From the IMG/VR virus record IMGVR_UViG_2531839180_000002, positions 1 to 8,797 of that record: a stretch of DNA of 8,797 nt. One strand, 5' to 3'. Both the position numbers and the translations under genes were made by a program. Below, in pieces: positions 1,782-8,797 of this stretch (position 1 is the first letter of the stretch; each line of letters opens with the position of its first letter). The notes under the pieces were generated by a model that ran no database searches, was not told the DNA's origin, and saw only the letters and a list, made by a program, of their open reading frames with translations. This DNA comes from a virus (Duplodnaviria > Heunggongvirae > Uroviricota > Caudoviricetes).

Positions 1782-1799
1782 GAGGCAGGGAGTTTTGAT

Positions 1800-2141
1800 A
1801 TGAAACAGCAACGTAATTCACGCTTTCGTAATGGTGCTGAACGCCACGCTAACCGTTTCGCTACCAGTGCATCACGCAGCAACATCCGCTACAGCCTAAG
1901 TGATACACACGCAACGCCGGATGGCTACCCAGTAAAACAAATCGGCGAGCATGCCTGGCTGATTGAGAAAGCTGGAATCGTGGTCCACAAATGCCCACGC
2001 AATCCGTTTACTGGAAACCGCATTTTTGCTCTAAGCAGCGGCGACAATCAGTTTGGGCAGGATTTCACATTATACGAAGCGCTTCGCACGGTTGATCGTC
2101 TGCTGCGTGGGCAGAGTTTTATTAAACAGGCTGATTTATAA
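1800..2141 (+). CDS. Hypothetical early protein, 113 aa
   Basis: ATG at 1800 with GGGAG (1788-1792) 7 nt upstream, 18 nt after the cox-like stop. No motif I can assign. Confidence 0.6.
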   Translation: MKQQRNSRFRNGAERHANRFATSASRSNIRYSLSDTHATPDGYPVKQIGEHAWLIEKAGIVVHKCPRNPFTGNRIFALSSGDNQFGQDFTLYEALRTVDRLLRGQSFIKQADL

Positions 2142-2151
2142 CAGGTGCTTT

Positions 2152-2430
2152 ATGACTAAAGACCATACTCAAGGTGTATTTATCCGCTTTATTGATTCTC
2201 GCGGTGAACTGTTATTGCGTGCATCAGCTATTAATGGTGTGGCCCAGGCAAAAGACGCAACCACTCATATTTATTTGGACAGCGCCGCACAACTGATCGT
2301 GGAACTTCCGTACCAGACCGTACGAGAAATCATTAGTGAAGCTGAAAAGGCACGCCAGGCTAATGGCGATGAACCCTATATCGAAATTATTTGTATGGAT
2401 TCAGAAACTGAAATTCAGAAAGCAGATTAA
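2152..2430 (+). CDS. Hypothetical early protein, 92 aa
   Basis: ATG at 2152, 10 nt after the upstream stop. The track ORF extends upstream to 2053 but that part overlaps the preceding gene. Function unknown. Confidence 0.55.
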   Translation: MTKDHTQGVFIRFIDSRGELLLRASAINGVAQAKDATTHIYLDSAAQLIVELPYQTVREIISEAEKARQANGDEPYIEIICMDSETEIQKAD

Positions 2431-2441
2431 AGGGCGTTGCG

Positions 2442-2684
2442 ATGGGTAAAGAATATAAAACTCTCATTAACAAAGCACTTGAGCGTTTTTATTTTCGCTT
2501 AAGTGCATCAGGCGCTCATGCTGAACGTGCAGCCCGTGACTCATTGACCAGGGCAATCCGGAGTCTGTATGACGTGGCTTTTTACGCTGATGATCTGGAT
2601 GCACTTAACGAACTTTCCGAGCTGATCTGTGCCGCAGAATGCGGGGAACATATTGAACCGTATAAGCTGGGGAATATTGCATGA
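2442..2684 (+). CDS. Hypothetical early protein, 80 aa
   Basis: ATG at 2442 with AAGGG 7 nt upstream. Contains a C-x-x-E-C-G-E-H segment. Function unknown. Confidence 0.55.
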   Translation: MGKEYKTLINKALERFYFRLSASGAHAERAARDSLTRAIRSLYDVAFYADDLDALNELSELICAAECGEHIEPYKLGNIA

Positions 2685-2794
2685 GTATATTTATCTCATG
2701 GCTTGTTCTGATTATTTCGGTGGCCTGCGCCATTGGGATTATGCGAATTATTCATTCAGTAAAAAAGATTGAACGCTTTTTCACTGGCGAATAA
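2681..2794 (+). CDS. Putative small membrane peptide, 37 aa (MSIFISWLVLIISVACAIGIMRIIHSVKKIERFFTGE)
   Basis: Not in the supplied ORF track (too short). ATG 2681-2683 overlaps the upstream TGA (ATGA junction), the same coupling pattern as at 3081 and 3323. GGGGA lies 7 nt upstream. One predicted hydrophobic helix followed by a basic tail. Hand-translated, so lower confidence. Confidence 0.35.
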   Translation: MSIFISWLVLIISVACAIGIMRIIHSVKKIERFFTGE

Positions 2795-2880
2795 CAGAGC
2801 AAATAAAACCACAGGTTAAATAAGAAAATGTAAAAACAATCCGCATTCGCGGAGGTATTCGCACACGCCAAGGAGGCGTA

Positions 2881-3084
2881 ATGGCAATTAAGCATTTTCC
2901 TGTCGTTCGTTTTACCTCCAGAGGACGTGAATACGAAGTCGACGAACGCCTGATTACCACAATCGACAAACACCGTTCAGAAAAGGATGCACATCACATC
3001 TATCTCACTGACGGCACTTACTTCTGCGCCACGAATGTGGTGCGGGTGAACCTTATCCGACAGGTACAGGAGTCACGCAGATGA
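2881..3084 (+). CDS. Hypothetical early protein, 67 aa
   Basis: ATG at 2881 preceded by a strong AGGAGG (2871-2876). First gene after an 86-bp A-rich gap. Confidence 0.65.
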   Translation: MAIKHFPVVRFTSRGREYEVDERLITTIDKHRSEKDAHHIYLTDGTYFCATNVVRVNLIRQVQESRR

Positions 3085-3326
3085 CCATTCTGGACTATAT
3101 CGCCGCCAATCCGGGGTGTAGCGGTGGAGAAATCGCCGCAGCACTGAATACCCCAACCACAGCCATTAATGCGGAGTTACGCCGACTCTGGCGCAGCGGT
3201 TCAGTCATAAGAAAAGAACGCAAAACAGGCGGTCGCTTTTCTTACCAGATAAACCCGATGCCGTTCGGGTGCGGCAATCCACTTACCAACATGTTTAACC
3301 AGCTACTGAAGGAAGCCAGAGCATGA
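3081..3326 (+). CDS. Small winged-helix-type putative DNA-binding protein, 81 aa
   Basis: ATGA overlap with the upstream gene; AGGAG at 3068-3072. N-terminal segment DYIAANPGCSGGEIAAALNTPTTAINAELRRLWRSGSV has the pattern of a winged helix-turn-helix. Inference from motif appearance only. Confidence 0.6.
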   Translation: MTILDYIAANPGCSGGEIAAALNTPTTAINAELRRLWRSGSVIRKERKTGGRFSYQINPMPFGCGNPLTNMFNQLLKEARA

Positions 3327-3622
3327 GCGCCATCAACCACCAGGAATTACGCGAACTGGCGATTGACCTGCAACGAATGGCAACGCATCAAAAATTACTG
3401 GCGTTTCGCGCAATGCTCTCGCCGTCTGCCGTGCTGGCACTGCTGGATGAGCTGGAGCACGCCAGAACCATGTCTCCAGCCATTCGCCTGACGCTCCGTC
3501 ATGAAATCGAGGATTTCTGCGCGACGTTGGAGGCACCAGGCGAACCGGAAACGCCGGAAGCAATACAGAAAGAGCTGCTGCAACGCATTGACAAGGTTTT
3601 TGATTTTTTTCTGAACCACTAA
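3323..3622 (+). CDS. Hypothetical early protein, 99 aa, acidic, predicted helical
   Basis: ATGA overlap with the upstream gene. Last of three translationally coupled ORFs (2881-3622). Confidence 0.6.
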   Translation: MSAINHQELRELAIDLQRMATHQKLLAFRAMLSPSAVLALLDELEHARTMSPAIRLTLRHEIEDFCATLEAPGEPETPEAIQKELLQRIDKVFDFFLNH

Positions 3623-3691
3623 GAAACCAGAACATGCACACACAAAAAAACCGCTTGCCATGCCGCAATCAGTCAGGTTACATTTCCGCTG

Positions 3692-3739
3692 CACCTCACA
3701 AAACGGGTGCCGGGTTTCGCAGCCTGCTGACTACACAAG
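3692..3739. repeat. Direct repeat copy 1 (CACCTCACA ... GTTTCGCAGC ... CTACACAAG)
   Basis: Shares the exact 10-mer GTTTCGCAGC (3714-3723 vs 3890-3899), the exact 9-mer CTACACAAG (3731-3739 vs 3926-3934) and a CACC(T)CACA block with copy 2, in the same order but with indels. Confidence 0.5.
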
Positions 3740-3744
3740 CGCAC

Positions 3745-3765
3745 AACCGCGCCAGCGGTTTTTTT
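3745..3765 (+). terminator. Candidate intrinsic terminator (AACCGC-GCCA-GCGGTT stem-loop followed by a T7 run)
   Basis: CCGC (3747-3750) pairs with GCGG (3755-3758) around a GCCA loop, extendable by two A-T pairs, then TTTTTTT (3759-3765). The stem is short, so this may be a partial or leaky terminator. An alternative fold pairs CGCACAA (3740-3746) with TTGTGCG (3764-3770). Confidence 0.35.
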
Positions 3766-3805
3766 GTGCGTACTGTATTGCCACGTTTTTTTCGCGTCAG
3801 AATTA

Positions 3806-3883
3806 TGGCGGGGCGTACGGGGCCGACTTCGGTCGGGCCGGGTTCTTGTGTAGCCGGTACTGCGAACCTCGTACGTCTCGCCA
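3806..3883 (+). ncRNA. Candidate structured RNA element, about 78 nt: 14-bp closing helix enclosing a cUUCGg tetraloop hairpin
   Basis: 3806-3819 (TGGCGGGGCGTACG) pairs antiparallel with 3870-3883 (CGTACGTCTCGCCA) as 12 Watson-Crick plus 2 G-U pairs, valid only on the plus-strand RNA. Inside, CCGAC-TTCG-GTCGG (3823-3836) is a C(UUCG)G tetraloop hairpin, and CCGG (3838-3841) can pair with CCGG (3854-3857). No RBS-supported ORF is present. Does not fit tRNA geometry. Confidence 0.3.
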
Positions 3884-3934
3884 CCCACAGTTTCGCAGCT
3901 CTGGATGGTGAGTTTTCACAACTTACTACACAAG
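3883..3934. repeat. Direct repeat copy 2 (CACCCACA GTTTCGCAGC ... CTACACAAG)
   Basis: See copy 1. The two copies bracket the terminator-like hairpin and the structured element, about 145 bp between them. Confidence 0.5.
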
Positions 3935-3944
3935 GGGCCACACC

Positions 3945-4175
3945 ATGGCAAACCGCAAACCACACCGCGCTATCGCGGAGCGTCGTCACATCCAGACTGA
4001 AATCAACCGCAGACTTTCCCGCGCATTCCGCGTCGCTAAAATCATGCACATCAATATGCTGCATGAGCGTAGCTGCGAACTTTCAAACCTCTACTCATCC
4101 GCTGTTTTCAGTTATCTGGCGGATGATCTGCGCGAGCTTCAGCAGCTCATCCAGCAGCAAAACAAACTCCATTAA
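3945..4175 (+). CDS. Hypothetical basic protein, 76 aa
   Basis: ATG at 3945 with AAGGGG (3932-3937) 7 nt upstream. Arg/Lys-rich N-terminal half, helical C-terminus. Function unknown. Confidence 0.6.
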   Translation: MANRKPHRAIAERRHIQTEINRRLSRAFRVAKIMHINMLHERSCELSNLYSSAVFSYLADDLRELQQLIQQQNKLH

Positions 4176-4247
4176 TTCCTGTTCCGGGCCTTTCCTGCAC
4201 CTTGCGGCGGGAGGCCTTCGCACATCTGTAACAAGAGGATTGCCGCA

Positions 4248-4613
4248 ATGATTCTCGCCAACGACTTTCTTGAATACCTGCTCAACACAGAACGTGATCT
4301 TGCCGCTCGCGTGCGTGATCGTTATGACATGTACCTGAAATCCCTGCCTGTACCGCAGCTCGCTGACGGAAAAATTGTTATTGATGGTCGCTACGTGATC
4401 GACAGCCATGAGGGAAATTACAGGCTTTACCGCATTGAAGGTGGCACCCCGTCCGTTATTGGCATTTACCAGCGCCCATCCTCTGCAATCGTCGATGTGA
4501 TTGCCGACAGCATCCGCATCACACATCGCCATGCCGACACAGAAAACACCGTGCTGGAAATTCAGCGGCTGGCTACAGTCTGCCGCGACACCCTGAATGG
4601 CATGACGAAGTAA
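4248..4613 (+). CDS. Hypothetical protein, 121 aa
   Basis: ATG at 4248 with AAGAGG (4233-4238). Ends 6 nt before the start of the replication gene. Function unknown. Confidence 0.6.
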   Translation: MILANDFLEYLLNTERDLAARVRDRYDMYLKSLPVPQLADGKIVIDGRYVIDSHEGNYRLYRIEGGTPSVIGIYQRPSSAIVDVIADSIRITHRHADTENTVLEIQRLATVCRDTLNGMTK

Positions 4614-4619
4614 ATCACT

Positions 4620-7442
4620 ATGACGGCAGAGTACATCAGGGACTGGCAACAACCGCGCCACGCAGTGGGGCGTGAAGGAACGGGGATCCCCGCTCCTGAA
4701 TCCGCGCTTTCCTCCTGGCTGGATGCCTACCGGGTAGAGAACGAGCGCCGCCAGGAAATGGCTGATGCGGCGTTCTCCGCCACGCCGCTGGGCAACCTGA
4801 TTAATAAAAGCCTGGACGCACAGGAAAAACAGGACAAAACCATCACACTGGCAGGAGACGCCAGAAAACAGGCACGCGGCGCGGTGGATGAAGCCATGGC
4901 CTCGCTGCGCCTGCTGCCGTCCTATCTGCGTGATCCGCTTATTCGCCACCTCTCCTTCCTGCGCAAAAAACAGGAAGCCGATCGCCGGAAAGACAAAAAG
5001 AGCTGGCAGGCTGAACGCTACGCGCGCGGAACCCTGCGCAAAATATTCGAACGTCTGGACCGCACCGACCACCGCTGGCTGACACCGGGTTATCGCTCCC
5101 TTGCAGGACGCGAACGCCTGGATGATTTGCTTTACCTGCCGCAGCTCAACAAGCACCAGATACAGACGCTGGCCACCATGACGGCGGCGATGTTCAGCAG
5201 CACCTTCGAAAAACTCTGCGATGGCTTTGGCGCGACTGATGGCGAGCTGACCATGGATGTAACCCTGAAGGCGTATCAGATGCTGGCCCGCATGGCGTTA
5301 CACCTGCACGCCATGCCTCCGCATTATGACGCACTGACAACAGATAAAGACCGGAGGAACGAACCGGACACGGAGCTGCTGCCGGGCGCAGTCCTTCGCC
5401 TGACCTGTGCGGAATGGTGGAAACGCAAACTGTGGCTGTTACGTTGCGAGTGGAGAGAAGAACAACTCCGCGCCGCCTGTCTGGTTTCCAGAAAAACATC
5501 GCCCTATCTGAGCCAGGACGCATTAAGCGAGTTTCGCGCACAGCGCGAGAAAACACGCGATTTCCTGAAAAGTTTCATGCTGGAAAACGAAGACGGGTTC
5601 ACGATTGATCTCGAGACAGTGTATTACGCGGGAGTAAGTAACCCGGTTCACCGTAAGGCAGAAATGATGGCCACCATGAAGGGTCTGGAACTTCTGGCCG
5701 AAGCCCGTGGCGACAAAGCGGTGTTTCTGACCGTCACCTGCCCGTCAAAATACCACGCCACAACAGAGAACGGTCATCCGAATCTCAAATGGAACGGGGC
5801 CACCATGCGCGACTCCAGCGATTACCTGGTTAACACGTTTTTTGCGGCGGTCCGCAAAAAACTGAACCGCGACGGCCTGCGCTGGTATGGCATCCGCACG
5901 GTGGAGCCTCACCATGACGGCACCGTGCACTGGCACATGATGGTCTTTGCTCATCCGGAAGAAATCGACAGCATCGTGGCCATCACCCGCGATATTGCCA
6001 TTCAGGAAGACCGCCACGAGCTGGGCGATGACATAACTCCGCGTTTTAAGGCGGAGTACGTCGACGGCTCAAAAGGCACGCCAACCAGCTACATCGCCAC
6101 CTACATCGGAAAGAACCTGGACAGCCGCGCCGTGGATGGCATCGACCCGAAAACGGGCAAGCCACGCGTTGACCACGAAACCGGAAAATCAATGGCCGAG
6201 AGTGTGGAACGCGCCATCGGCTGGGCGCGCCTTCACCGGGTCCGCCAGTTCCAGTTCTTTGGCATCCCCTCCCGTCAGGTATGGCGTGAACTCCGCCGCC
6301 TTGCCAGCCAGATGGCACGCAACCCGGAAGGCCCACAACGGCTGAAGGATGATGCAATGGATGCGGTACTCGCTGCCGCTGATGCCGGGTGTTTTGCCAC
6401 CTACATTGAGAAACAGGGCGGCGTACTTGTTCCACGCAAAGACTACCTGATTCGCACCGCTTACGACCTCGCAGATGAGCTGAACGATTACGGCGAACAG
6501 AGCGTACAGATTTACGGGATCTGGTCACCACTCATCGGGGAATCCTCCCGTGTGTGCACGCACCCGGATAACTGGAAGCTGGTAAGACGTAAACCGGAAG
6601 CGGAAGACAGCGCCCGCGAAAATGGTTTTGACCTTCAGGGCGGCCCAGCCGCCCCTTGGACTCGTGGCAATAACTGTCCCCGTGTACAGGAAACGGACAA
6701 CAACGGGACAGAACAGCCGGAAGAACGGCCAGCACCGTGGTCGCAGCTCCCTGACGGCGTTGAAGTGAACGAATGGATGCGCTCACTGAAACGGCACGAA
6801 CGCCGGGCGCTGATGCGTTCGCTTCGTGACAAACAGGCAAAAAACAGCCGTGATGAAATGCAGAGCTGGACACAGAGCCGCAAACAGCAGCGGCCTTTGC
6901 CTGATAACCACGAATTACTCGCTAAAGAATGGCGGGAGTCTGCTGAATCTCTCGGCCTGCATATCGGTGAACAGCAGATGCAGCACCTGTTACGGGGCGG
7001 CAGTCTGTACGTTGACGGCAGCATCATTGCACCGCAGGGATTTGAAATTGTACGCAAGCCGGATACCCGACCGGACAGCCGGATCACGCAGCTCTGGCAG
7101 CGCCTGAGCCGTAACCACGGCGTAAGCAGCACGGAGATCCGCCATAACCCGGTCGCCAGCTATCTGGAACAGCTGGGGGCATCAGACCCCGAAGCCGCCG
7201 CACGCCTGGCATCCACACTTCAGCAAGACCAGAACACCATGAAAACACCCGTTACCGTGCTTTCTGACATGCTGCGCGCCATCCGCGACGCAGAGCACGC
7301 GCAGAGAATCAGTGAAACTGCTGAACGCGCCCGCCGCAAAGCAGACCTGCTGCGGGGTGGCCTGACCAGCGGAAACAAAAAACAGACAGAAACGGGATTC
7401 ACAAATCCCGTAAATGAGCAAAAAACGCGCCGCGATATATGA
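4620..7442 (+). CDS. A: Rolling-circle replication initiator, HUH endonuclease of the P2 gpA / phiX174 gpA family, 940 aa
   Basis: HUH metal-binding motif in EPHHDGTVHWHMMVF (HWH at 5928-5936). Paired catalytic tyrosines plus lysine in SYIATYIGKN (Tyr codons at 6090-6092 and 6102-6104), i.e. the Y-x3-Y-x2-K signature. Sits at the end of the early operon as P2 A does. Long N- and C-terminal regions flank the catalytic core. Confidence 0.9.
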   Translation: MTAEYIRDWQQPRHAVGREGTGIPAPESALSSWLDAYRVENERRQEMADAAFSATPLGNLINKSLDAQEKQDKTITLAGDARKQARGAVDEAMASLRLLPSYLRDPLIRHLSFLRKKQEADRRKDKKSWQAERYARGTLRKIFERLDRTDHRWLTPGYRSLAGRERLDDLLYLPQLNKHQIQTLATMTAAMFSSTFEKLCDGFGATDGELTMDVTLKAYQMLARMALHLHAMPPHYDALTTDKDRRNEPDTELLPGAVLRLTCAEWWKRKLWLLRCEWREEQLRAACLVSRKTSPYLSQDALSEFRAQREKTRDFLKSFMLENEDGFTIDLETVYYAGVSNPVHRKAEMMATMKGLELLAEARGDKAVFLTVTCPSKYHATTENGHPNLKWNGATMRDSSDYLVNTFFAAVRKKLNRDGLRWYGIRTVEPHHDGTVHWHMMVFAHPEEIDSIVAITRDIAIQEDRHELGDDITPRFKAEYVDGSKGTPTSYIATYIGKNLDSRAVDGIDPKTGKPRVDHETGKSMAESVERAIGWARLHRVRQFQFFGIPSRQVWRELRRLASQMARNPEGPQRLKDDAMDAVLAAADAGCFATYIEKQGGVLVPRKDYLIRTAYDLADELNDYGEQSVQIYGIWSPLIGESSRVCTHPDNWKLVRRKPEAEDSARENGFDLQGGPAAPWTRGNNCPRVQETDNNGTEQPEERPAPWSQLPDGVEVNEWMRSLKRHERRALMRSLRDKQAKNSRDEMQSWTQSRKQQRPLPDNHELLAKEWRESAESLGLHIGEQQMQHLLRGGSLYVDGSIIAPQGFEIVRKPDTRPDSRITQLWQRLSRNHGVSSTEIRHNPVASYLEQLGASDPEAAARLASTLQQDQNTMKTPVTVLSDMLRAIRDAEHAQRISETAERARRKADLLRGGLTSGNKKQTETGFTNPVNEQKTRRDI
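7376..7414. repeat. 39-bp repeat copy 1 containing the palindrome ACGGGATT-caca-AATCCCGT; lies inside the 3' end of gene A
   Basis: Matches copy 2 at 32 of 39 positions. Palindrome arms at 7392-7399 and 7404-7411. Confidence 0.55.
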
Positions 7443-7448
7443 AGCGCG

Positions 7449-7487
7449 CACAAAACAGGCAAAAACGGGATTTCAGAATCCCGTAAA
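7449..7487. promoter_or_regulatory. 39-bp repeat copy 2 containing the palindrome ACGGGATT-tcag-AATCCCGT; candidate parC-like centromere/operator overlapping a putative parM promoter
   Basis: Palindrome arms at 7465-7472 and 7477-7484. A possible -35 TTCAGA (7472-7477) and -10 ATTAAT (7494-7499) with 16-bp spacing would place the palindrome over the -35. In the plasmid R1 parMRC system, ParR binds repeats that overlap the par promoter. Confidence 0.45.
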
Positions 7488-7518
7488 CGATTAATTAATC
7501 AACATAAGGAAAAGCGAC

Positions 7519-8478
7519 ATGAAAATTTGTATCGACGACGGCTCCACCAACATCAAGCTGGCATGGACTGAGAACGGCGAACGCCGCAACGCCATCAGCC
7601 CGAACAGCTTCAAGTCGGAATGGTCTGCGCCGTTCGGCGGCACGCAGCCCGCGAACTACATGCTTGATGGCGTGCGCTATGGTTTTGATCCGGTCAGCGA
7701 TCGCTTTGTCCAGACGACCGACACGCAATACCAGTACAGCGATGTGAATGTCATTGCCATTCATCACGCGCTGGTCAAATCAGGCATCACGCCACAGGAG
7801 GTGGATGTGGTTGTCACCCTGCCACTGAGCGAGTATTTCGACACAAACGCACAGCCGGACATGGCCAACATCAACCGCAAAAAAGCGAACGTTATGCGCC
7901 CGGTGGAGTACCAGAACGGCGAAGCATTCACTATCCGTAACGTACGGGTTATGCCTGAATCCATTCCGGCTGGCTTTAAGGCACTGGCTGACATGAGTCC
8001 GTTTGAATCCCTGCTGATTGTGGATTTAGGCGGAACCACGCTGGATGTGGCAAAGGTTCAGGGACAACTGGCAGGCATCAGCCAGGTGTTTTGCGATCCA
8101 CACGTAGGCGTTTCCCTGATGGCCGATGCCGTACTGTCGGTGATGGCCACTAACGGTATGCGTACCAGTCACCATATCGCCAGTACCATTATCGAACATC
8201 GCCACGATGAAGCCTGGTTGCACCAGCACATCCACAATGACGCGCATTACGCCAGCCTGATGGCGGTTATTCGTGAAAAGGAAGAAACACTGAAACAACG
8301 CGTGATCCGCGCGCTGGCGGGTTTTTCGGGTTACGGGCGGGTGATGGTTGTCGGTGGAGGGGCAGAAATTGTGGCACCCGCTATCCGCGAAGCCTGCGGT
8401 GTTAATGCGACTTTCATCGCGGACGGGGTGCCACAGTTTGCTCTGGTTAATGGGCTGTACGCAATGGACAAGGAGTAA
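7519..8478 (+). CDS. parM: Actin-like segregation ATPase ParM/StbA, 319 aa
   Basis: ATG at 7519 with AAGGA 8 nt upstream. Actin-fold signatures are visible: phosphate-1 DDGSTNIKL at the N-terminus, phosphate-2 IVDLGGTTLDV, adenosine motif VVGGGAE. Colinear resemblance to plasmid R1 ParM along the whole length, as I recall that sequence. Confidence 0.9.
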   Translation: MKICIDDGSTNIKLAWTENGERRNAISPNSFKSEWSAPFGGTQPANYMLDGVRYGFDPVSDRFVQTTDTQYQYSDVNVIAIHHALVKSGITPQEVDVVVTLPLSEYFDTNAQPDMANINRKKANVMRPVEYQNGEAFTIRNVRVMPESIPAGFKALADMSPFESLLIVDLGGTTLDVAKVQGQLAGISQVFCDPHVGVSLMADAVLSVMATNGMRTSHHIASTIIEHRHDEAWLHQHIHNDAHYASLMAVIREKEETLKQRVIRALAGFSGYGRVMVVGGGAEIVAPAIREACGVNATFIADGVPQFALVNGLYAMDKE

Positions 8479-8482
8479 ACCA

Positions 8483-8797
8483 ATGAGGTCACCAACCAGA
8501 CGGATAAGTTTCTATCTGAAGCCAGCCGCCGTCAAGAGTGAACAGGAGGCGTGCAATTACCTCGACAACCTGCCAGCCTCGGAACGCAGCCGCGCACAAC
8601 GCGCGGCCTTTCTGGCGGGACTGGCACTCATAAAACGTGCCCCCGCACTGGCGTATTCGCTGGCAGAATGGTCAGAAGACGAAATACGGATGCCATCGCT
8701 GCCAGTGCAGCCTGAAAAACAGGCGCAACCAGCAACAGCCAGCGCCACCCCTATGCAGCAGGTGAAAAAGAATATTCAGGCGTTTTTTCCAGAATAA
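8483..8797 (+). CDS. parR: Partition adaptor ParR/StbB (ribbon-helix-helix centromere-binding protein), 104 aa
   Basis: ATG at 8483, 4 nt after the parM stop, with AGGAG (8471-8475). N-terminal region RRISFYLKPAAV...LPASERSRAQRAAFLAGLAL parallels R1 ParR (TIAFKLNPDV...IPQGERSRLNRAALTAGLAL). Ends with TAA at the last base of the window; the track ORF starts upstream at 8348 inside parM. Confidence 0.85.
   Translation: MRSPTRRISFYLKPAAVKSEQEACNYLDNLPASERSRAQRAAFLAGLALIKRAPALAYSLAEWSEDEIRMPSLPVQPEKQAQPATASATPMQQVKKNIQAFFPE

Follow-up and report, generated by a model that had tools for sequence, protein, structure and literature searches.

A two-dyad candidate parC-like site upstream of the ParM/ParR module of a P88-like prophage

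The DNA analysed here is a stretch of 8,797 nucleotides (the window; IMG/VR record IMGVR_UViG_2531839180_000002) from the early region of a P88-like prophage (Xuanwuvirus, P2-like), in which the genes follow one another in the order A, parM, parR. Gene A (4620–7442, + strand), taken from the list of open reading frames, encodes a P2-type replication endonuclease of 940 amino acids (Pfam Phage_GPA, 3.3e-130). The parM gene (7519–8478, + strand) encodes a 319-residue actin-like segregation ATPase (StbA_N PF06406, 1.7e-82; ParM C-terminal domain PF21523, 6.6e-68). The 104-residue product of parR (8483–8797, + strand) is a presumed RHH adaptor that matches Plasmid_stab_B (Pfam PF10784, 3.6e-25). 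The locus has the components of a type II (ParMRC) module: Pfam identifies an actin-like ParM ATPase gene at 7519–8478 and a small ParR (PF10784) directly downstream of it, and a repeated cis site lies beside the operon, between −143 and −29 relative to the parM start codon. ParM is 97–100% identical across more than 100 related loci. Of 5426 complete E. coli genomes, 1304 (roughly one in four) carry the junction of gene A and parM, and 1441 of the 1443 copies in these genomes are chromosomal. A 34.5-kb circular record that is labelled as a plasmid and contains the locus is a whole phage genome.

The cis site is built from two direct repeats. The first-pass annotation had described them as copies at 7376–7414 and 7449–7487 that are 32/39 identical and 73 bp apart, each containing ACGGGATT-N4-AATCCCGT, with the first copy located in the last codons of gene A. 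All of these coordinates and sequences proved exact: the palindromes are present at 7392–7411 and 7465–7484, and the tail of the gene A reading frame, KQTETGFTNPVNEQKTRRDI followed by the stop codon, reads through copy 1. A repeat search extended the copies to 42 nucleotides (81% identity) with a start-to-start spacing of 73. Copy 1 (7376–7417), which is made up of dyad 1 between an A-rich arm and the first part of a 3′ flank, sits within the last 22 codons of gene A, and copy 2 (7449–7490) is located in the 76-bp intergenic spacer between A and parM. Dyad 1 (ACGGGATTCACAAATCCCGT, 7392–7411) has 8-bp arms and a 4-bp centre, and its GGG is positioned 125 nucleotides upstream of the parM ATG; the GGG of dyad 2 (ACGGGATTTCAGAATCCCGT, 7465–7484) is 52 nucleotides upstream. 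The 31-bp spacer between the repeats (7418–7448) holds the gene A stop codon (7440–7442) and varies more than any other part of the element in a variability profile of 66 distinct sequences. The ACGGGATT-N4-AATCCCGT motif has no further occurrence in the window when as many as three mismatches are tolerated, and two matches to it arise in 0 of 200 dinucleotide shuffles. Its core, GGGATT-N4-AATCCC, is limited to these two sites in the whole 35.8-kb P88 genome when up to two mismatches are allowed. No other repeat array adjoining parMR was found in the window or in P88.

AAA tracts between positions −150 and −20 are phased at 10.5 bp, with the observed power being reached in 4 of 2000 shuffles. 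Such phasing was sought in the related sites of Hafnia and Plesiomonas and is absent there. Each 42-nucleotide repeat can be read as four degenerate 11-bp iterons (CAnAAAYSSS); because the A-tract phasing in the E. coli lineage is its only support and is not shared by Hafnia and Plesiomonas, this reading is kept as a possibility and was not adopted.

The region between dyad 2 and parM contains additional signals. A perfect 12-bp palindrome, GATTAATTAATC (7489–7500), is located directly 3′ of dyad 2 and may belong to a promoter or an operator. The sequence ATTAATCAA from the palindrome region is kept in Hafnia and Plesiomonas, and several loci contain a two-sided variant of the palindrome, GGTTAATTAACC. 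A Shine-Dalgarno-like AAGGA (7506–7510, + strand) is positioned eight nucleotides before the parM ATG, and the corresponding TAAGGA/AAAGGG is conserved among relatives. A scan of 7200–7700 predicted no sigma-70-like promoter. The earlier suggestion that copy 2 overlaps a plausible −35 element of parM is therefore weak, and an operator role of the site is uncertain for the same reason. A weak −10 element could lie within the conserved ATTAATCAA...AAGGA segment downstream of dyad 2.

It had been asked whether the repeats travel with parMR or with gene A. Comparison of related loci answers in favour of parMR, because recombinants with exchanged upstream genes keep the repeats. In locus L046, the A protein is only 32% identical and is accompanied by an extra open reading frame, and both repeats are kept in an intergenic position, which indicates that copy 1 overlaps gene A incidentally and not for functional reasons. 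Locus L065 has a different upstream reading frame and both repeats, and locus L020 has copy 2 only, with the recombination junction at the left edge of that copy. Conservation of the repeats together with parMR extends to over 100 loci and to two further genera. The comparison favours the view that they are a putative protein-binding cis element of the parMR module. One locus (L113) contains the repeats without an intact parMR; it has undergone a recent internal deletion that fuses codon 25 of parM to the tail of parR and is therefore uninformative about function. An exact palindrome also occurs once in each of five viral contigs that have neither A nor parM; these occurrences were taken as chance or unrelated, and the one in L117 is a classical terminator.

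Two P2-like prophages, one from Hafnia (L129) and one from Plesiomonas (L131), encode ParM proteins with 61–63% identity, and their flanking sequences are otherwise unalignable. Both contain two GGG-N10-CCC dyads, spaced 73 bp in Hafnia and 72 bp in Plesiomonas, and located at −128/−55 and −131/−59 from the parM ATG, respectively, compared with −125/−52 in the window. Such a pair of dyads arose in 0 of 200,000 shuffles of the upstream 200 nucleotides of Hafnia and in 3 of 200,000 of those of Plesiomonas, statistics that are partly post hoc because the GGG-N10-CCC motif was defined after the sequences had been seen. A ParM scan of genome contigs returned only three loci, none below 97% identity, so that the diversity was not enlarged; among viral contigs, Hafnia ParM had no match and Plesiomonas ParM matched one locus, which belongs to the NRK class described below. 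Within 30 distinct E. coli-type site variants, positions G4, G5, A13, A14, C16, and C17 never vary, and G4, G5, C16, and C17 of dyad 1 are invariant in 17 distinct variants. The hairpins in the window have stabilities of about −10.5 kcal/mol (−10.7 on the + strand and −10.2 on the minus strand), and those of Hafnia and Plesiomonas, with 10-nucleotide loops and three to four GC pairs, reach only about −4.5 to −5 kcal/mol, or about −4.5 to −8.5 kcal/mol when assessed as minus-strand terminators. Two-sided compensatory changes are absent from the 16 pairs (eight at each of the two sites) in the 30 E. coli-type variants. The conserved feature of the dyads is base identity, not pairing.

ParR of the window aligns to ParR/StbB of plasmid pB171 (PDB 2JD3) with residues 6–62 corresponding to residues 8–63 (E = 0.011). 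The match, which is to the only solved structure found for this protein, lies over the RHH region and takes in the ERSR/ERGE helix start as well as an AGLAL-like helix. Homologues of ParR are 48–96% identical, and residues R6–P14 (RRISFYLKP) are invariant in 26 diverse homologues. The N-terminal segment TRRISFYLKP, which does not vary, is taken to be the DNA-reading strand of the RHH fold; the remainder of the protein is about 50% identical. In the nucleotide sequence, gene A, the repeats, parM, and parR up to approximately codon 19 form one conserved block, after which the identity drops to about 50%. An AlphaFold2 model of the ParR monomer has a mean pLDDT of 65 and shows, at low confidence, a disordered and extended N-terminal segment followed by two or three helices and a further one at the C terminus; a Foldseek search of the model against the PDB gave no meaningful match. 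The monomer model is uninformative because the RHH ribbon forms only in the dimer. No association was found between the ParR families (I, IIa, IIb) and variants of the dyads or palindrome; this fits the invariance of the strand and means that there is no covariation signal within the E. coli lineage.

Beyond that lineage, the repeats differ together with the strand. Prophages of Serratia, of the Enterobacter type, and of locus L222 have the ParR strand NRKISFYLKP and lack GGG-N10-CCC; the same interval, −120 to −50, is occupied there by a long inverted repeat, CGGGAACGATATAGAAAAAT ... ATTTTTCTGTTTCGTTCCC. In an R1-type plasmid, the strand RRTIAFKLNP goes with AAACCC iterons, which are of the classical kind at the R1-type locus (L125), and IncL/M and IncF plasmids combine the strand NRKCSFYIYP with T-rich iterons. 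This comparison favours a dependence of the type of site on the ParR strand class, as judged from few independent lineages (about three of the TRR type and three of the NRK type).

The reading that best accommodates these observations is that the 115-bp segment 7376–7490 is a parC-like centromere, and probably also an operator, of the prophage type II ParM/ParR module; its probability is estimated at about 0.65. In the proposed mechanism, each 20-bp dyad (core GGGATT-N4-AATCCC) would be bound by ParR through its N-terminal RHH β-ribbon, probably by a pair of dimers with one dimer per half-site. The spacing of 73 bp corresponds to approximately seven helical turns and therefore places the dyads on the same face of the helix, and the helically phased A-tracts around them may favour a bent or wrapped ParR–DNA complex. 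The complex would capture the ends of ParM filaments through the conserved C-terminal tail of ParR (NIQAFFPE), and it may also repress the transcription of parMR. That ParR is the binder, in what stoichiometry it binds, and that the site acts as centromere and operator are predictions from sequence comparison. The first-pass annotation had placed a parC-like centromere or operator here and noted that it is unlike the 11-bp iterons of R1 parC; the difference in architecture stands, and the parC role is favoured by comparison of loci.

Dyad symmetry and conserved spacing point to protein binding without naming the protein. The dyads may be sites for a phage regulator or host factor other than ParR that controls parMR, with the true ParR centromere located elsewhere. 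The helices and linker of ParR are highly variable and the sites nearly constant, and the characterised relatives of ParR bind direct iterons and not dyads, as would be expected if another protein recognised the dyads. Nevertheless, such a binder is considered unlikely, since the repeats move with parMR when upstream genes are exchanged, their type changes with the ParR strand class, the invariant N-terminal strand of ParR is encoded within the same conserved nucleotide block, and the window and P88 offer no other repeat array beside parMR.

Still less probable is a role in RNA: the palindromes would form hairpins in the sense (+) mRNA that extends from gene A into parM and could serve in its processing, its stability, or the coupling of translation. 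Read-through transcripts from A to parM are plausible because the + strand has no terminator between the genes, the + strand hairpin is the more stable one given above, and in several common variants (A1 to G, C18 to T) G-U pairs preserve the + strand stem (−8.8 kcal/mol, versus −3.3 kcal/mol on the minus strand). However, the lack of compensatory double changes speaks against selection for pairing, one-sided changes occur in both directions, and the stems of Hafnia and Plesiomonas collapse, with GGG/CCC and the 72–73 bp spacing kept. A search of 7250–7650 against Rfam returned no match at E ≤ 1.

The first-pass annotation had offered, as an alternative, minus-strand terminators against antisense transcription; as rho-independent terminators, they would stop it from entering gene A. 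Both dyads fit the pattern of a stable GC hairpin and U-run on that strand (two pattern matches, −10.2 kcal/mol), with an 8-bp stem containing four GC pairs followed by UUUUGCCUGU or UUCUGUCUGU, and the A-rich arm that would give rise to the U-run forms part of the direct repeat. The alternative is disfavoured, and very improbable, because neither the hairpin stability nor the A/U run is conserved in Hafnia and Plesiomonas. Furthermore, two sites are no excess over the 1.3 ± 1.1 found in shuffled sequences, the common E. coli variant GCGGGATTTAAAAATCCTGT lowers the stability of the minus-strand hairpin to −3.3 kcal/mol, and a pair of identical terminators would not be expected to keep its spacing across genera. 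Nor does an obvious antisense transcript reach the repeats, since the annotated P88 genes over more than 2 kb downstream of them are all on the + strand. The idea that the repeats are the origin or accessory sites of the gene A endonuclease, to which the position of copy 1 inside gene A and the location of the P2 origin inside its own gene A lend some appeal, can practically be dismissed, because the P2 origin region (nick at 29892) matches window positions 6640–6677 (30/38), about 700 bp upstream and not at 7376–7490, and the repeats are retained where the A protein is only 32% identical and where they are intergenic.

The parC-like site most likely belongs to a known kind of centromere/operator, of which it would be an unusual form with two dyads, as predicted from the comparisons above. 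In searches of a paper library, no account of the parC of P88 or of P2-like phages was found. The same locus is known from Rousset et al. (2022) as a putative plasmid partitioning system in the gpA–gpQ hotspot of P2-like phages; the passages of that paper retrieved by a term search mention the genes only and describe no cis site. The compact candidate centromere of 115 bp makes the role of phage ParM and ParR directly testable. If two dyads suffice to couple DNA to ParM filaments, the site would be among the smallest type II centromeres and would offer dyads as an alternative to iteron arrays, with consequences for models of how ParR assemblies cap ParM filaments. A speculative and rather doubtful extension is that the minimal two-dyad centromere and the ParM spindle move or hold the excised or replicating genome of a P2-like phage, either for carriage as an episome once excised or to position rolling-circle replication, rather than serving the usual plasmid inheritance. 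The body of ParR (48–96% identity) would then diversify by recombination while its strand and ParM-binding tail, ParM (97–100%), and the dyads stay fixed.

The candidate site resembles parC of plasmid R1 in its position immediately upstream of parM–parR, in the ParR family shared by the two systems (PF10784), and in its bipartite layout, which is 42 + 31 + 42 bp here and 55 + 39 + 55 bp in R1. A-rich, helically phased DNA is common to both, and R1 parC is reported to be strongly curved (PMC2241845). By contrast, R1 parC consists of ten direct 11-bp iterons in two sets of five, each binding one ParR dimer, whereas the prophage has two long repeats with internal dyads, that is, two 20-bp dyad-symmetric sites. 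In this respect, it departs from every characterised enterobacterial parC, and the presence of two dyads rather than about ten iterons raises doubt over the formation of a filament-capping ParR ring. A clear promoter lies in the central 39 bp of R1 parC, whereas here no sigma-70 promoter is recognisable, the A-tract periodicity is only degenerate, and the upstream gene has its stop codon in the central spacer. R1 is a plasmid, and the element studied here is a P2-like prophage that integrates.

ParR of pB171 par2 (2JD3) matches the window ParR in the RHH region with weak sequence similarity, and parC1 and parC2 of pB171 are arrays of short direct repeats. In the dyad operators of the RHH repressors Arc and Mnt and the 20-bp centromere repeats of pSK41, a site of about 20–21 bp is bound by two RHH dimers, which by analogy would be the mode proposed for each 20-bp dyad. 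The Arc, Mnt, and pSK41 proteins are not known to be close relatives of the window ParR, and the pSK41 centromere is composed of tandem direct repeats. The AlpA–AlpC–alpS system of the Corynebacterium prophage CGP3 likewise combines an actin-like filament with an adaptor that binds repeats upstream of the operon (PMC4446434). It differs in that its proteins are unrelated in detail, the adaptor gene comes first, and alpS consists of 24 short TTAAnnG repeats. AlpA–AlpC is needed for efficient replication of phage DNA and not for plasmid inheritance (PMC4446434).

The DNA is the early and replication region of a P88-like prophage (Xuanwuvirus, Peduoviridae, P2-like). In megablast searches, Xuanwuvirus P884B11 matches positions 1790–8537 at 96.5% identity and phage P88 at about 95%. 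The integrase gene on the minus strand (1–1023) is separated by early genes from gene A, encoding the replication endonuclease (4620–7442; Phage_GPA, 3.3e-130), which is followed by parM (7519–8478; StbA_N, 1.7e-82) and parR, with an ATG at 8483 and its end at 8797 (PF10784, 3.6e-25). A GC-rich hairpin, CATCAGGGCGCATCCGCCCTGATG, located just after the parR stop codon in P88 (about 330–375 of the P88 locus L223) and outside the window, may be where the parMR unit ends.

Two direct repeats flanking the end of gene A, 7376–7414 and 7449–7487, are identical in 32 of 39 positions with a spacing of 73 base pairs, as described in the first-pass annotation, and the pair extends to 42 nucleotides with 81% identity. 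Each copy contains the palindrome ACGGGATT-N4-AATCCCGT (7392–7411 and 7465–7484). Two such matches were reached in none of 200 shuffles, and a search of the window allowing up to three mismatches found no others. The dyad core, with up to two mismatches, is restricted to these two places in the whole 35.8-kb P88 genome. Copy 1 does lie within the last codons of gene A, where it encodes the protein tail KQTETGFTNPVNEQKTRRDI. The GC content of 7376–7518 is 41%, lower than that of gene A (58%) and parM (55%); therefore, the end of the A reading frame resembles intergenic DNA. Its last 67 nucleotides (7376–7442) are intergenic-like in composition, and the same DNA is intergenic in L046, a recombinant junction variant. 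The 20-residue tail of A specified by these nucleotides is probably incidental, arising where the reading frame runs into the control region of parMR.

When viral contigs were scanned for the exact pattern, 119 loci were identified. Of these, 114 are A-parM(-parR) junctions, and the remaining five, which have a single palindrome each and no relation to the junction, were rejected. The A protein of L046 is 32% identical, an additional open reading frame ends 57 nucleotides before dyad 1, and the sequence departs from that of the window directly left of repeat 1; both repeats are present and intergenic. Another variant, L065, has a different upstream reading frame and both repeats, whereas L020 retains copy 2 alone, with the junction at the left edge of that copy. 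These junctions indicate that the overlap with gene A is incidental and that the conservation of the repeats is not explicable by protein coding. The comparison of relatives called for earlier is thus answered: judged from the junction sequences, the repeats follow parMR, not gene A. In a further variant, L113 (reverse complement of about 6900–7250), a natural deletion joins parM near codon 25 to the part of parR that encodes the C-terminal end (ending in ITSQMAGNIRALFPE), and both repeats are retained in this decayed version of the parMR module.

Homologues of ParM with 60%–95% identity are rare. P2-like prophages of Hafnia (ParM 61% identical), Plesiomonas (63%), and Serratia (58%) have the common order gpA-(orf)-parM-parR-...-portal. 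The window and the Hafnia and Plesiomonas prophages contain two GGG-N10-CCC dyads at matching positions despite otherwise unalignable flanks. Sites 1 and 2 are ACGGGATTCACAAATCCCGT and ACGGGATTTCAGAATCCCGT in the window (spacing 73; GGG at -125 and -52 from the parM ATG), TGGGATTGAGGAAACCCA and CGGGTTCATTAAATCCCA in Hafnia (73; -128 and -55), and GCGGGACAACAAAAACCCGA and GCGGGACAACACTAACCCAC in Plesiomonas (72; -131 and -59). The spacing is constant within one base pair in the three genera, and because 73 base pairs correspond to about seven turns of B-DNA, both dyads are on the same face of the helix. Dyad pairs spaced 70–76 base pairs occurred 5, 0, and 3 times per 200,000 shuffles of the 200-nucleotide upstream regions of the window, Hafnia, and Plesiomonas, respectively, for a motif defined after the sequences had been seen. 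The sites of L221, a locus with 94% ParM identity, are GCGGGATTCATGAATCCCAA and ACGGGATTTGAAAATCCCAT. AAA tracts between -150 and -20 of the window are phased at 10.5 base pairs, with the observed power reached in 4 of 2000 shuffles; the phasing is also present in L221 (18 of 2000) and absent, in the same test, in Hafnia and Plesiomonas.

ParM is 97–100% identical among more than 100 related prophages, whereas ParR is only 48–96% identical. In a sliding comparison, a block of about 95–98% identity includes the 3' half of gene A, the repeats, and parM, and extends to about codon 19 of parR, past which (break at about 8540) the nucleotide identity falls to about 50%. This suggests that recombination at the border of the gpA-gpQ hotspot has diversified the body of ParR. 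Two parts of the mosaic ParR (8483–8797) stay constant, the strand RRISFYLKP at the N terminus and the NIxAxFPE tail at the C terminus; across 26 diverse homologues, R6–P14 (RRISFYLKP) do not vary, nor do several helix residues or the C-terminal N97, I98, F102, and P103. The N-terminal strand is the DNA-reading part of ribbon-helix-helix proteins. Residues 6–62 of the window ParR align to ParR of pB171 (2JD3). Within the E. coli lineage, ParR family and site variant are not correlated, which would be expected of a specificity determined by the strand. Between lineages, the type of upstream site follows that of the strand in the sequences compared. TRR(I/V)SFYL(K/N)P accompanies two GGG-N10-CCC dyads in E. 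coli, L221, Hafnia, and Plesiomonas. NRKISFYLKP, in Serratia L132, Enterobacter-type L134, and L222, accompanies a long inverted repeat CGGGAACGATATAGAAAAAT...ATTTTTCTGTTTCGTTCCC at about -120 to -50 together with GCCGTTTAAACGGC; the GGG-N10-CCC dyad is absent upstream of parM in these three loci. NRKCSFYIYP of IncL/M and IncF plasmids occurs with T-rich TTTTTCTAT-type iterons, and RRTIAFKLNP of an R1-type plasmid with AAACCC iterons, 5+5 around a TTGACA promoter. The elements of the NRKISFYLKP class (3880–3975 in L132, 2884–2950 in L134, and 1384–1450 in L222) have the same position relative to parM, a GCCGTTTAAACGGC-like palindrome, and a left end, AAAAACGGGA, common to the window repeats.

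The likeliest explanation of 7376–7490, with a probability of roughly 0.65, is that a ParMRC module carried by the phage has its centromere/operator here, as the predicted binding site of ParR. ParR would occupy each 20-bp dyad through its ribbon-helix-helix ribbon, and the two dyads would cooperate across seven helical turns.

Site variants were pooled from a pattern-selected scan and a ParM-selected scan independent of the palindrome. G4, G5, C16, C17, A13, and A14 are constant in all of them, one-sided changes occur in both directions, and no two-sided compensatory change is found among the 17 distinct variants of site 1 and 13 of site 2. Conserved base identity with unconserved pairing fits a dyad-symmetric protein-binding site, and there is a small but real chance that the protein using it is one other than ParR. 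The same pattern counts against both an RNA hairpin of the sense strand and minus-strand terminators. The window sites fold at -10.7 (plus strand) and -10.2 kcal/mol (minus strand), but Hafnia and Plesiomonas hairpins reach mostly about -4.5 to -5 kcal/mol, with 3–4 GC pairs and 10-nucleotide loops, and one minus-strand site as low as -8.5 kcal/mol. Given this weak folding, the missing compensatory changes, and no Rfam match for the repeat region, a sense-strand hairpin role is improbable. The terminators offered earlier as an alternative are less probable still, since the A-run encoding the U-tail is missing at the Hafnia and Plesiomonas sites, the minus-strand hairpin of the frequent variant GCGGGATTTAAAAATCCTGT drops to -3.3 kcal/mol, and P88 has only plus-strand genes for more than 1.2 kb 3' of parR. 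A function of the repeats as gene A-related origin sites is rejected as very improbable, because the homologue of the P2 nick site, annotated at 29892 within P2 gene A, is located about 700 base pairs upstream of them, at 6640–6677 (GCGGCCCAGCCGCCCCTTGGACTCGTGGCAATAACTGT, identical to P2 in 30 of 38 positions). This segment, probably the origin of this phage, belongs to an island (6636–6697) that is the sole part of the window also matching distant Klebsiella P2-like phages in megablast.

No sigma-70-like promoter candidate passes the scan, which leaves the proposed -35 element of parM overlapping copy 2 unsupported. The sequence ATTAATCAA...TAAGGA 3' of dyad 2 is kept in the window, Hafnia, and Plesiomonas. 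In E. coli-lineage loci, this stretch forms a perfect palindrome of 12 bp, GATTAATTAATC (7489–7500), which follows dyad 2 and precedes the Shine-Dalgarno sequence of parM. Several loci have GGTTAATTAACC in its place, with both sides altered and the palindrome preserved, and others a one-sided variant, GGTTAATTAATC. The palindrome may serve as a -10 or operator element. Transcription of parMR may start at a promoter of its own repressed by ParR, or may enter from gene A.

Among 5426 complete E. coli genomes, 1304 carry the A-parM junction (query 7340–7560), with up to three copies per genome, and 1441 of its 1443 copies are chromosomal. A 34,461-bp circular E. coli "plasmid" record (L224, NZ_CP148288.1) is a complete P88-like phage genome with int, cox, A, parM, parR, and structural genes. 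It hints that the phage is recoverable as an episome, or may be induced phage DNA that was assembled separately.

Rousset et al. (2022) reported a putative partition system at the gpA-gpQ hotspot of about a quarter of P2-like phages and suggested that it might permit maintenance as plasmids (PMC9122126); no description of its cis site was found in the literature searched. AlpAC/alpS of prophage CGP3 demonstrates that an actin-like filament and its adaptor can serve phage DNA replication, not plasmid inheritance (PMC4446434). The parC of R1 is 159 bp long, with two sets of five 11-bp iterons, a 39-bp promoter region between them, and about one ParR dimer per iteron; it has strong curvature and forms a U-shaped complex (PMC2241845). 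The first-pass proposal of a parC-like site differing in architecture from that of R1 gains comparative support and holds for the difference, while ParR binding remains a prediction. The candidate element is, like R1 parC, bipartite (42 + 31 + 42 bp); however, it is made of dyads and falls outside the R1-type definition of direct 11-bp iteron arrays. Therefore, with its predicted parC-like role, it is classed as a variant of parC.
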